From Octopus sinensis (lineage: Eukaryota), in the NCBI RefSeq assembly GCF_006345805.1, contig NC_042998.1:106578001-106642000 (forward strand): a DNA stretch of 64,000 nt. Direction: 5' to 3'. The notes under the pieces were generated by a model. The model ran no database searches and was not told where the DNA came from. It saw nothing but the letters and a program-made list of their open reading frames with translations. Each line of letters opens with the position of its first letter. Position 1 is the stretch's first letter. The position numbers were made by a program, and so were the translations under genes. This document shows, piece by piece, positions 13,990 to 63,597 of the stretch.

Positions 13990-14152
13990 TACAAAGGCAG
14001 GTGGTGTAGACAACAAAAAGATGTATTAGTTTAATGCTCAGGAAGTGAAAAAGTCTTTAATGTTTTGAGCCTACGCTCTTCCACAGAAAGGAACACAGAA
14101 AGAAACAAGGAGAGAAAATATAGAATGTGTAGTGGCTAGCGATCTATCATGG
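13990..14152 (-). mobile_element. Penelope-like pseudo-LTR remnant with decayed hammerhead motif
   Basis: Minus strand 14055-14090: cttt CTGTGGA a gagc gtag gctc AAAA ca tt aaag; homologous to the 25127 copy. Confidence 0.6.
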
Positions 14153-14969
14153 AAAAAAAAAGAAATATATATATATATATGTTTGTATGTATGTATGTAT
14201 GTATGAATGTATGTATGTACACCTTTAATGCTGCTTGTAAAGCAGTATTATTTTTAACTCAATTAGAAACATACCTACCCAAATATTTTTTCTTAATTGG
14301 TTTTGAGAACTCTATGGCTTGCATACACAACTTCTGCATAACACAACTTCCAGCAGACTGTCTATAACTTACTTCACCAACATTCCAAGAACTTACAGAA
14401 ATTCCAACTAGAAATACTTGTCCACTCATATAGACTAATGCTACTACAATCAGGTCAACTATAGTAACTCTTAGTTTACATGCAAATTTCTTTAGATATT
14501 CAAAATATACTACCATACCACTTCCTCCCACTTCATCAACACTGAGAACTGAACCAATCCCACAACCACAGCCTAGCACAACCACTCAGGTCTGACTAAT
14601 TTTCTCTCCCACTCAAAACTCAAAATTCTTAGAATTGATCCCAAATCCATCTTGGAAAGCCTGATGACAAACTGAAACATGATATTGAAAACAACTTTTG
14701 CAAAACCATCTACTAGCTAAAACAAATTTCAGCACATGTAGGGTGGACAAGATTCTTTAAGGCAACTTCCCTAATGCTTATATGACAATAAAATACACCC
14801 AGTAAATTTTAAATTCTTGGCAGCAGAATCAGTGTCCAACTATAAAAACTATGTCCAGAGCAATAACCCTGAATAAGAACTAGCTCAATCTATGACAACT
14901 GTTCAAGCCATGCAAACATAGAAAAGCAAAGAAAAACAGACCTAAATATATGTGTGTGTGTGTGTGTAT

Positions 14970-15375
14970 AGCTGCAGGACTGGCTGTGTGGTAAGAAGCT
15001 TACTTCCTAGTCGCATGGTTCTGAGATCAGTCCACTGTGTGACACCTGGGGCAAGTGTCTCCTACTATAGCCTCAAGCCAACCAAAGCCTTGCAAGTGGA
15101 TTTGGTAGACGGAAACTAAAAGAAGCCCATCATGTATATATATGTATATGTGTATATCTATAAGTGTGTGTCTTTGTGTCTGTGTTTGTACCCCTCCAGT
15201 GTTGGTGTGTTTATATCCTCATAACTTAGTGGTTCAACTACACAGAATGATAGAATAGGTACCAAGCTTAAAAAATAAAAAGTACTGGGGTCTATTTATT
15301 CAACTAAAATTCTTCAAAACAGTGCCCTAGCATGGCCACAATCTAATGATTCAAACAAGTAAGAGAATAAAAGAA
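14970..15375 (+). mobile_element. SINE family A, full length
   Basis: tRNA-like head tggctgtgtggtaagaagc, body gggcaagtgtct...ggatttggtagacggaaact, central (TA/TG)n, tail aacaagtaagagaataaaag. Confidence 0.85.
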
Positions 15376-15381
15376 TATATA

Positions 15382-16240
15382 CAGGGTGCGGTGAATAAAC
15401 TGTTATCTAAATTATGCAAAAATGAAAATAATATTGACATCTCATTTTAACAGATATATTTACTAAAATTACATAAAAATATTATGAAATACTAAACAGT
15501 AAATTTATTCAATAAAATCGCCATTGGCTTCAACCACAGCCTCCAGATGACTTCTGAATCTTCCACGACTCTTCTGGATGGTCTCCTTGTTTAAGTTGGT
15601 CAATGCCTTCAATTCATTTTTGGTGTTACAAGGAGTTTTGTTAGTCTCTCACTCAACTATGCTCTACACATAATAATCAAATGGGGTTGCAGTCTGGCTG
15701 AGTTAGGTGGCCAGAGGTTAGTGGCGATGTGGTCAAAGAAATTGTCTGACAGCCATGACTGGGTTCTCCTGCTTGTGTGGTATGGTGCAGAGTCCTGTTG
15801 CCAGACATAGGGTCTTCAAGCAGCCACCCACTTGATCCAGAGCAGCACTACCTCCTCCAGGCACTTGATGTTGGCTCCCATGTTAAGTCTGAGGCCATGT
15901 GGGAAGATGAATGGAAGCATAATATCGCCATCACTAGTGATCGCTGCAAACACCATGATGTTGACTGGATGTTTGGTTTTATAACTCTCGGTACATGTCC
16001 TCACATTGACACCCAAACACTCTGAAATGTTTGTTTTGGAGCTTCTGGCATGAATGCCAAGTAGTACAGCATGTTGTTTCCAAATTTCTGGTAGATTGAA
16101 TTGTGTCATGGTGCTGTTTTTCTAACAGACGGTGCCCAACTGACTCTACTATACTGTGCAGTTGACAAAATCAAAAACAAACAGAGCACATGCATGAAAT
16201 TAAAAATACAAAATTGTGACAATTTACACATCACACCTTG
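15382..16240 (-). mobile_element. Internally deleted maT (DD37D) transposon
   Basis: Imperfect TIRs (cagggtgcggtgaataaactgtta / caaggtgtgatgtgtaaattgtca) with TA flanks. Translation YVWQQDSAPYHTSRRTQSWLSDNFFDHIATNLWPPNS-PDCNP-FDYYV gives 37 residues between the two Asp after correcting two 1-nt insertions. Confidence 0.85.
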
Positions 16241-16333
16241 TATATATATATATTCCATTATTCTTATATATATATACATATATACATACATACACACATA
16301 CATACACACATACATACATATATGTATATATAA

Positions 16334-60911: not shown

Positions 60912-61140
60912 AGGCGAGCTGGCAGAAACGTTAGCACGCCGGGCGAAATGCTTAGCGGTATTTCGTCTGCGTTACGTTGTGAGTTCAAAATCCGCCGAGG
61001 TCGACTTTGCCTTTCATCCTTTCGGGGTCGATAAATTAAGTACCAGTTACGTACTGGGTCGATGTAATCGACTTAATACCTATGTCTGTCCTTGTTTGTC
61101 CTCTCTGTGTTTAGCCCCTTGTGGGTAATAAAGAAATAGG
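60912..61140 (+). mobile_element. SINE family D, young copy
   Basis: aggcgagctggcagaaacgttagcacgccgggcg...gcctttcatcctttcggggtcgataaattaagtaccag. Confidence 0.85.
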
Positions 61141-62861
61141 TATTCTTACATTGTACTAGGCTTCTATTTTTAACCCTAAAGTTTCATAGAAAAACGAGTC
61201 AGTATAACAGGATATTATACAGGAAGAGGCAATGCTCACTCACTACTGATGATTATGAACGTCTTTAAATGGTATTCAGCAAATAATCTGCAACTTGAAA
61301 ATCAGGGTTATCGTCAAGCAGTCTACTGAGAAATTAAAATGTCATTTAGTCTAATAAATAAAAATTTACAACTGCAGAGAAGAGAAAGTATACAGCTTGG
61401 TCACTTAACATTTTTCAAAGTACTTAGTTGTGAATTAAATAGTAAGAACATTACTGTTACCATCAAACACGTAAGCATTGCCACTAATAGCTTAACAAAG
61501 GGGAACGAGACTGACTCAGATACAAAAGATCACAATGCTTGAGATCTATTATAGATCTAATCTCCCATCCTAAAGCATCACATACGACGCAACAAAGAAG
61601 ACTTAGCGACTGAACATTTCCAGAAGAGACAAAAGCAGCTGACGAGTGAACATAATAGGACATTTTAAGAAAGTGATTATTAATATTGCATATTATCTTT
61701 CATGTTCGTTTTAAATCTTTTCCACCCTATCATTGCATAATGGCAGAAAATTTCTCCTCAGAAATTTGTTTAGATTTCTAACAGCTAAGCTCCATAATAT
61801 CGAAAAATTATAACAACAACGATGAAAATCTAAATCTCAAAAATGAATATATTCATTTCGCATGAATAATGAAAATTGAAAACAAGACAAATTATCTATC
61901 CTCGGTATAAAAATCTGGTTAAAAGGAACATCACAATTAAAAACATTTTATACACAGTCTTATACAGTCACTACGTCTACACTCCTGGTACATTAGGAGC
62001 ATCTACCGTTCTTATAATATGAATGTTAATACCAATGTGAGAAACTAATTTTATGAAAAGATGCTCATATTCTTTTATCAGAATGTTCTACACCAGTAAA
62101 GTATATTTGAAGGCCTGTGTTGCAAAGCCACTAATTATTTCTTGTTAATTTTTAATGATCCCTGTATTAATAAATGTGGTAACATTAAATGGCGCCTCTG
62201 AAACGGCATTACTAAGTAATTGATTCATTGAACAATTTTATTTTCCCTTGTCAAACAATAGACAATCAACACCAGTTGGTATACGAAGTCGTAATAAAAC
62301 CGTCTTAGCCTTTTAATATTCCTTGCAGTATATCAATATTATATTAACTACTGATATTAGACAAGTATGTATGTATGTATGTATGTATGTATGTATGTAT
62401 GTATGTATGTATGTATGTATGTATGTATGTATGTATGTATCTATGTATTTATGTATGTATTGATGTATATATATGTATTTATGTATGTATTGATGTATAT
62501 ATATGTATGTATGTATATATGTACGTATATAGGTATGTAAGTAAATGTTGCAAAGCCCTCAAATTATATAATTATAAAATCCACGAAGGTGTTCAGTATT
62601 TAATAAGTTCTTAATTTTTTGTTTTAAATTTACACTACCACAGTATCATCAATCCATCGATACATCCACACACACACACACACATATATATATACACGCG
62701 CACATACACACAGATATATATATATATATATATATATATATATATAATATATATATATATATCAAATGTGAGGATAAAATTATTTTCGAAAAAATAATAT
62801 TTTCTCGAAAAAAATCTTATCAATGGCCAGCATATTAAAAAATACCTTTAACAGTTAAATT

Positions 62862-63142
62862 TATAAACAATTCATAAATGAGGGCAAAGAAAAAAAATTC
62901 TAATGCCAAATATGCCGAAAAATTGGACATATTGTTCATTAACCATATAATTTTTTCACAATACGCACGCTACTCGAAAAAAGGCTGACAGAAATTTAGA
63001 AATTTTAGAAATTTCCTTCAGCCTTTTTTCGAGTAGCGTGCGTATGTGAAAAAATTATATGGTTAATGAACAATATGTCCAATTTTTCGGCATATTGGCA
63101 TTAGAATTTTTTTCCTTTGCCCTCATTTATGAATTGTATATA
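62862..63142. repeat. Palindromic MITE-like element, ~135-bp arms
   Basis: caattcataaatgagggcaaag...aaggctga versus tcagcctt...ctttgccctcatttatgaattg; TA-rich flanks. Confidence 0.92.
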
Positions 63143-63407
63143 TAATATATATATATATATATATATATACGAGTGAATGAACAAACGAAAGAAGGGCACT
63201 CAACCAATTTATTGGGAGTTACATGTATGGATCAAAACAGATTGATTCAAAATCGTTGGTACTTTGAGTTTCAAGTGCGACGGCTAGCATCGCGCTTGAA
63301 ACTCAAGAGTATCAACGAATTTGAATCAAACTGTTTTGATCCATATATATATATATATATATATATATATATATATATATATATATATATATATATATAT
63401 ATATATA

Positions 63408-63597
63408 TAGTTAATCCAAACATGAAAACACAAAGAGAAAACACAACAACGCGAGGACGTAGAACAAATATAGTATTATTGGACGCTCAGGGAAGAAGGA
63501 GGATTTAACGTTTCGAGCTGAGCTCTTCGTCGGAAACACAGGAGAAAGAAAGATCCAGAGAAGGGAAGACAGAGGGAAAAAAATCGCCAACGGTACA
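63408..63597 (-). mobile_element. Penelope-like pseudo-LTR with hammerhead motif
   Basis: Minus 63503-63537: gttt CCGACGA a gagc tca gctc GAAA cg TT aaat; homologous to the 27880 and 52.2 kb copies. Confidence 0.7.

Follow-up and report, generated by a model that had tools for sequence, protein, structure and literature searches.

Minimal hammerhead motifs with lineage-fixed changes in the CUGA turn in pseudo-LTRs of Penelope-like elements, probably of Neptune type, in Octopus sinensis

A stretch of 64,000 nucleotides from Octopus sinensis (RefSeq assembly GCF_006345805.1, contig NC_042998.1, positions 106,578,001 to 106,642,000 of the forward strand; hereafter the window) harbors five dispersed motifs that are almost certainly minimal type-I hammerhead ribozymes placed in the pseudo-long terminal repeats (pseudo-LTRs) of Penelope-like elements (PLEs). 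The youngest lineages of these elements have fixed either of two changes in the CUGA turn of the core, U4C or A6U. The ribozyme likely to result cleaves weakly, possibly with help from a protein, and is bypassed by most insertions. We give this reading of attenuated cleavage a probability of about 0.5. The families are distinguished by turn changes that are fixed by lineage while the remainder of the motif is maintained, in elements that were active recently, have intact open reading frames (ORFs) and stand beside canonical sisters.

The five motifs had been proposed by a sequence-only reading of the window, and all of them were recovered at the positions and on the strands that it had given. 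The pattern GAAGAGC-N3-6-GCTC[AG]AAA matched five times in the 64-kb window and never in 200 dinucleotide shuffles, and a covariance model built from the five copies and their relatives revealed no sixth copy in the window below E 0.5.

The host elements are PLEs, probably of Neptune type, and the window copies are ordinary 5′-truncated 3′ pseudo-LTR ends inserted at (TA)n. The PLE origin suggested by the sequence-only reading was supported by linking the motif to ORFs with reverse transcriptase (RT) and GIY-YIG domains at genome loci chosen by ORF alone. A genome search with an RT piece gave 12,136 candidates, of which 150 were scored and separated into two groups, and 20 loci per group were retained by open-frame length. 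The motif was found downstream of the ORF on the same strand in 36 of these 40 loci, where the background density would predict about one; these were 17 of the 20 lineage-B loci, all with C4, and 19 of the 20 lineage-A loci, all reading CUGUUGA. It was also observed upstream of the ORF, 270-900 bases before the open frame, in six lineage-B and four lineage-A loci. Both direct pseudo-LTRs flanked the ORF in 10 of the 40 loci, the repeats being 91.5-99.7% identical; in all ten of these two-repeat elements the paired repeats differed by 0-6 substitutions and the 3′ repeat ran straight into TA, at the place where endonuclease-bearing PLEs may have a tail of 30-40 bp.

Full elements, located elsewhere in the genome, consist of a single ORF (RT, zinc-finger linker and GIY-YIG) between two motif-bearing pseudo-LTRs. 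In the extended copies L063, L064 and L066, RT and GIY-YIG frames lay 3-4 kb upstream of the motif on the same strand, and L066 presented a second motif-bearing repeat ahead of the ORF. The open frames comprised 1008 amino acids (aa) in L113 and L114 and 963 aa in L134, with Pfam matches for L113 and L134, respectively, mostly below the curated cut-offs (RVT_1, E 0.002 and 2e-7; GIY-YIG, E 0.02 and 0.003), and 278 homologues with RT and GIY-YIG-related Pfam families were found. The linker between RT and endonuclease followed CX4CxxC (CSRSRCNTC in L113 and CSRPRCRTC in L134), within the CX2-5CxxC form that Neptune shares with Nematis. The endonuclease presented the CCHH arrangement in an alignment of 20 proteins with single exceptions, two Cys separating the GIY-like from the YIG-like strand and two His following further downstream. 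Placement in the Neptune clade appears probable from these protein motifs and from an indirect link to Acropora. The region between the ORF and the 3′ repeat measured 2.8-3.0 kb and was CA-rich in lineage B (e.g., L113:4300-7100), and measured 0.3-0.9 kb in lineage A.

Insertion behavior was also that of PLEs. Among 30 U4C copies the 3′ end was fixed and the 5′ ends were variable, a TA run following 29 of them, as it did 85 of 100 lineage-A copies; the distance from the scissile bond to the fixed 3′ end at (TA)n was ~120-150 bases. At L126:6272-6825, three head-to-tail pseudo-LTR copies, two of them from another subfamily, were parted by TA runs, an array produced by elements inserting side by side in one microsatellite. 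When both PLE ORFs were searched against the window no match was obtained, and since the window copies are solitary, truncated and devoid of an ORF, no two of them represent the paired repeats of one element. The layout of non-LTR retrozymes, in which non-coding tandem units each carry a hammerhead, was not observed for the window copies, which are single and extend into coding elements. Evenly spaced stretches totaling 400 kb contained seven copies, which corresponds to ~48,000 copies in the 2.72-Gb genome (95% range 19,000-98,000), so that five copies in 64 kb lie somewhat above the genome average.

The sequence-only reading had assigned the five copies to one abundant family with an atypical core. 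The abundance stood, but the copies were derived from three lineages, designated A, B and C. Lineage A (loop GTAG) was represented by 13,610 exact copies; position 6 was T in 99 of the first 100 copies listed, and position 7 took all four bases according to subfamily. This fixed A6U had been overlooked by the earlier reading. Among 100 lineage-A copies picked by their downstream flank, the 80 readable cores comprised 79 with U6, one with C6 and none with A6, and the lineage-A loop combined with A6 was found in two of the 100 canonical-core matches listed, so these are rare exceptions. All six lineage-A subfamilies carried U6, even though they were up to 17% diverged.

The U4C change, read in two window copies as CCGACGA plus an extra A, proved to be a true family state rather than a private one, since the exact 29-base motif had 6,566 genome copies against none for its control and all 17 motif-bearing lineage-B loci of the ORF-picked set had C4. 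Flank-picked lineage-B copies, 27 of 30 being readable, gave 14 C4 and 13 U4. The canonical core CTGACGA (subfamily B0) occurred in 2,299 exact copies versus 183 of CCAACGA, the mirror product of CpG decay; this disparity ruled out that the CTGACGA copies had decayed from U4C and indicated that canonical B0 is a real subfamily. Subfamilies B1 and B2 carry C4, B0 and family C keep the canonical core, and lineage A carries U6. Reading the window copies that lack CCGA as decayed CCGACGA was abandoned, because the copy at 27946 came from the canonical CUGAAGA family C and those at 14055 and 25186 from the A6U lineage. The extra A after A9 was not atypical either, being standard in this motif class, whose reported consensus is CUGANGAH (PMC4209133).

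An old and divergent family D (L183-L188, L190 and L191), with core CCGACGA and loop TTT, presented C4 in eight of nine exact matches. With family D also C4, the change arose either twice or once with two reversions, and family D is a possible second origin of U4C. The DNA tree included 182 of 183 pieces, one row outside the family having been dropped, and its bootstrap had yet to converge; it is compatible with either order of U4 and C4 in lineage B.

The window copies and their motifs are given below, with positions counted from the first base of the window.

13991..14150 (-): 5′-truncated lineage A pseudo-LTR of the subfamily with G7 (nhmmer E 3e-41)
14055-14090 (-): its motif, core CUGUGGA (A6U), with G12A likely from CpG decay; scissile bond after 14059
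25126..25308 (+): decayed, 5′-truncated lineage A pseudo-LTR, followed by (TA)n (E 2e-28)
25186-25221 (+): its motif, core CUGCUGA, a private change of the family U6; G12A
27884..28085 (+): 5′-truncated family C pseudo-LTR flanked by TA runs, in a tree clade with L154, L177 and L181
27946-27980 (+): its motif, canonical core CUGAAGA with a private G17
51335..52305 (+): last kilobase, at the 3′ end, of an element from the young family B2, comprising CA-rich 3′ region and pseudo-LTR, with TA runs on either side
52182-52216 (+): its motif, core CCGACGA (U4C), with a stem-I U-U mismatch at family level
63408..63598 (-): 5′-truncated family B1 pseudo-LTR, followed by (TA)n, 90% identical to L126
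63503-63537 (-): its motif, core CCGACGA (U4C)

The copy at 52182 was 96.8% identical to the full element L113 over 1019 bases. Stem II (GAGC/GCTC) was invariant in all five motifs and their loops read gtag, atgg, ttt, tcc and tca, as had been noted; atgg is a private variant of the family loop gtag, and tca one of the family loop tcc. The covariation in stem I claimed for the window held for one pair, which swaps G-C for C-G, but was clean only in 27946 (GTTT/AAAC) and 14055 (CTTT/AAAG); the stem was imperfect in 52182 (GTTT/ATAC), 63503 (GTTT/AAAT) and 25186 (CTTT/AATA). The G12A shared by 14055 and 25186 and the palindromes altered in three window copies fit CpG decay after insertion, and 14055, 25186 and 27946 would be inactive whatever the state of their families. 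Accepted by the descriptor for a full minimal hammerhead was only the copy at 63503, and Rfam gave no hammerhead for two copies scanned alone nor among the best 150 of 246 window matches.

The direction of the core changes was indicated by the relatives. A descriptor that tolerated a single substitution at either position 4 or position 6 matched 25 times beside relatives at 80 metagenome loci, with no match in the reversed control, and all 25 hammerheads kept U4 and A6, which implies that U4C and A6U are derived. In a quick protein tree of 72 rows with >=230 aligned residues, including 8 of the 40 own loci, A and B were sister lineages nested among the relatives, beside a group including L202. 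Among the hammerheads of Fig. S3 in PMC4209133, the one of the Acropora Neptune element matched the L202 motif, and the nearest relatives L202, L208 and L243 read like the Acropora motif, with the same GCUC strand of stem II. All 56 published examples in that figure have U4 and A6, and nearly all of them have the extra base after A9.

Outside the turn, the fold was preserved. Adding six relatives extended the covariation, as the sequence-only reading had anticipated for a wider alignment: seven of ten pairs changed on both sides, and 93.8% of cells were paired in the 14 rows against 23-43% in slid controls, with most of the signal coming from the six relatives and the rows being chosen by hand. 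All subfamily consensuses kept the extra base between A9 and 10.1, the G10.1-C11.1 pair, the palindromic 15.2/16.2 and NUH, features decayed in three window copies. In the six lineage-A consensuses, 2 of 36 motif columns were variable versus 49 of 113 in the flanks (Fisher 7.5e-6), the two being N7 and H17, and in the seven B/C consensuses the figures were 7 of 35 versus 63 of 110 (9e-5). Unchanged across subfamilies were C3-G8, G5, A9, G12-A14, A15.1-U16.1 and a non-G position 17, which was occupied by A, U or C in all 13 consensuses. For comparison, 58% of 280 fourfold sites differed between the A and B ORFs. Over 1.8 kb of ORF the median distance between lineage-A copies was 0.7%, and the B2 copies nearest L113 were 0.3-1.4% away; these low divergences indicate that both core variants were copied recently.

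A block YCC[TC]GAGCG was observed 15-23 bases 3′ of the scissile bond in all families (e.g., window 52233-52241). It was kept in 13 of 13 A/B/C subfamily consensuses, was not seen in the three closest relatives inspected, and is a possible promoter or protein site. Competition of this downstream GAGC for stem II was rejected (pair probability <=0.08 in the six segments scored).

By analogy with known PLE biology, the element's protein would nick (TA)n and reverse-transcribe the RNA from its 3′ end, usually stopping early. Because the fixed 3′ end lies downstream of the motif, any copy that extends across the motif must derive from a transcript left intact at that site, and 80 of the 100 flank-picked lineage-A copies spanned it whole. 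The two motifs of a full-length transcript may pair through the ACGU palindrome, and the core positions fixed across subfamilies suggest that slow cleavage is still under selection. Fast cutting at the 3′ motif would sever the template from its priming end, and attenuating changes would then be tolerated or favored.

Several observations weigh against such attenuated cleavage. The subfamilies were assigned by hand rules on 4-34 copies each, their consensuses derived mostly from motif-picked copies, which inflates conservation and is partly mended by the flank-picked sets, and canonical B0 and U4C copies are of overlapping age, judged by flank divergence (0.045-0.067 vs 0.055). In the youngest B subfamily, B2, a stem-I U-U mismatch makes the dimer less stable by prediction, its energy rising from -7.3 to +1.5 kcal/mol, a change that resembles functional loss more than tuning. 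The hammerhead dimer was less stable than other folds in six of six folded sequences, including a canonical relative, so folding does not show that the dimer forms. The footprint of cleavage was weak: among the lineage-A loci counted by hand from the first 100 of 296 matches, 15 of 46 started at the scissile bond versus 6 at the equivalent loop TA (p=0.04, uncorrected), and canonical B0 gave 3 of 23, or 3 of 20 once three non-junctions were dropped, which did not differ significantly from A (Fisher p=0.23). The flank-picked set of 100 copies included 17 truncations, one of them at the scissile bond. An RT stop at the hairpin would produce a similar pile-up of 5′ ends.

In L448, L451 and four further loci, lineage-A copies truncated at the scissile bond were often preceded by short repeats of the first 5-11 post-bond bases, some alternating with stretches of TA, a pattern suggestive of slippage or re-priming by the RT. 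A sign of expression was also sought; all 24 runs found consisted of contigs, and four of them, aligned to L113, piled up at the motif with ends loose on both sides; since this block is common to the subfamilies, the pile-up is silent on RNA level and RNA ends.

It is possible, although we consider it doubtful, that the variant motifs no longer cleave and that their fold persists because it serves the element cycle without catalysis, e.g., by binding the RT protein or making it pause, by pairing two repeats via the palindrome or by forming a stable hairpin. U4C and A6U both lie in the CUGA turn, and low activity is reported for single mutants of that turn (PMC9901934). In lineage A, U6 is predicted to pair with A15.1 and close the core into a rod, with predicted pair probabilities of 0.8-0.98 in the youngest family, and U6 persisted through all six diverged subfamilies. 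B2 is young and abundant despite its lost stem-I pair, hammerhead mutants of an anole PLE were described as inserting normally in vitro (PMC11167929), and Naiads are described as proliferating without canonical hammerheads (PMC8557442). However, the lineage-A subfamilies changed solely at N7 and H17, the two positions that catalysis tolerates, position 17 shifting between A and U and never to G; U4C does not induce the rod helix (probability ~0.01), and neither change is among the most stabilizing core substitutions. Accordingly, U4C and A6U as convergent stabilizers of one alternative helix were rejected, as this holds for lineage A only. A broader statement is equally tentative, namely that two or perhaps three lineages independently broke the CUGA turn in different ways (A6U; U4C, possibly twice) and still made tens of thousands of copies, while purifying selection maintained the remaining fold over many subfamily turnovers, the hammerhead being kept for a job besides fast cleavage.

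The invariance of stem II within the families of this genome and the retention of YCC[TC]GAGCG in every consensus, as expected of DNA sites, could also reflect a block conserved as DNA within an internal promoter of the pseudo-LTR, the ribozyme being dead and its hammerhead look inherited; PLE pseudo-LTRs are reported to contain promoters (PMC6765202, PMC8557442). This is improbable, given that the stem-I difference between A and B is compensatory (G-C to C-G, held in 64 of 80 A copies), that pairs changed on both sides once relatives were included, and that the free positions (7, 17 and loop II) follow the pattern of the RNA fold. Still harder to credit is that the substitutions are neutral, variant dimers cutting about as well as canonical ones because dimer formation, not the core, limits the rate. 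Canonical PLE minimal hammerheads were reported to be poor cleavers in vitro already (PMC4209133), and lineage A had at least as many scissile-bond junctions as canonical B0, but positions 4 and 6 are unchanged in the 25 hammerheads of relatives and the 56 of the published figure, which points to a general cost, and published mutants at both positions lose activity. The attenuated-cleavage reading therefore remains the one preferred here.

The motifs resemble above all the PLE minimal type-I hammerheads described by Cervera and de la Pena (2014, PMC4209133), in particular the Neptune motif of Acropora digitifera. They have in common the type-I layout, the extra base after A9, G10.1-C11.1, the palindromic A-CG-U for stem III, a stem I of 3-4 bp, a U-rich 5′ flank, and mostly solitary copies from truncated elements. 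Unlike the 56 motifs of that study, in which U3-A8 is the sole core variant and whose listed examples include no cephalopod, U4C and A6U are here master states with thousands of copies. The elements share with the Neptune/Nematis endonuclease-positive (EN+) PLEs (PMC8557442) a single ORF with RT, CX4CxxC linker and C-terminal GIY-YIG with CCHH, as well as pseudo-LTRs, 5′ truncation and (TA)n targets, and differ from the described members in the long CA-rich region between ORF and motif in lineage B.

Changes at the same core positions have been reported for viroid U4C (PMC3088659) and phage Bcep176 A6C (PMC7151607). Their activity is reduced rather than zero: U4C lowers in vitro activity, although the viroid carrying it is still infectious, and A6C retains slow cleavage when Mg2+ is low. 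Those are, in contrast, rare single ribozymes with full stems. Searches of the open-access literature, in which supplements were partly covered, retrieved neither a natural hammerhead with A6U nor a PLE family with fixed U4C or A6U. The PLE Poseidon PAc of the green anole (PMC11167929) likewise has a hammerhead, AT-rich targets and uncut RNA as main template; in the in vitro assays reported, its hammerhead cleaves only with its protein and no RNA ends were mapped to the site. The PAc core is, however, canonical and overlaps the ORF start, whereas in the octopus elements the core is changed and the motif lies well upstream. Metazoan non-LTR retrozymes (bioRxiv 10.64898/2026.07.22.740005) also have type-I hammerheads tied to PLEs, but they are described as non-coding tandem units rather than truncated ends of coding elements. 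Recently active Penelope-like families have been reported in an octopus, in a study whose main text has no mention of a ribozyme (PMC13282606).

PLE hammerheads are puzzling in that their cleavage is poor, in one case depends on the element's protein, and is dispensable for insertion in vitro, as mutants show. The octopus genome provides an experiment of nature, in which recently active families whose altered cores should cut less well stand next to canonical sister subfamilies one base apart; matched pairs with intact ORFs (canonical B0 and C versus U4C and A6U) make the function of the PLE hammerhead directly testable and, if it has a job beyond fast cleavage, could show that job. Strict CUGANGA descriptors overlook these families, although their exact copies number at least 20,000 in this genome, so that published claims of PLEs without hammerheads may partly reflect the descriptor.

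Other repeats were noticed in passing. Another dispersed minimal-hammerhead family, with a canonical core and a longer stem II, was found at L134, L148, L337 and L346. Abutting the copy at 63503, window 63594-64000 belongs to a different abundant dispersed repeat (2,785 candidates); a GIY-YIG remnant at this place was rejected, as Pfam gave nothing and no PLE ORF matched. The frames of its relatives presumably resemble a Tc1/mariner transposase, for which Pfam gave no match. A broken Tc1-type transposase lies at 4389-5347 (-) (DDE_3, E 3e-13; HTH_Tnp_Tc3_2, E 2e-11), with a similar piece near 18318-18635. Pattern and descriptor scans found no hammerhead in the tandem arrays of the window, which comprise a 352-base unit at 2973-3764 and related arrays of 60-66 bases at 2659-2858, 13037-13563, 16497-16843, 24383-24581, 28280-28554 and 34791-34972. 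A near-perfect inverted repeat at ~40310-40580, with arms of ~130 bases and a 6-base centre, is possibly a foldback element, and a weaker one occupies 36130-36374.

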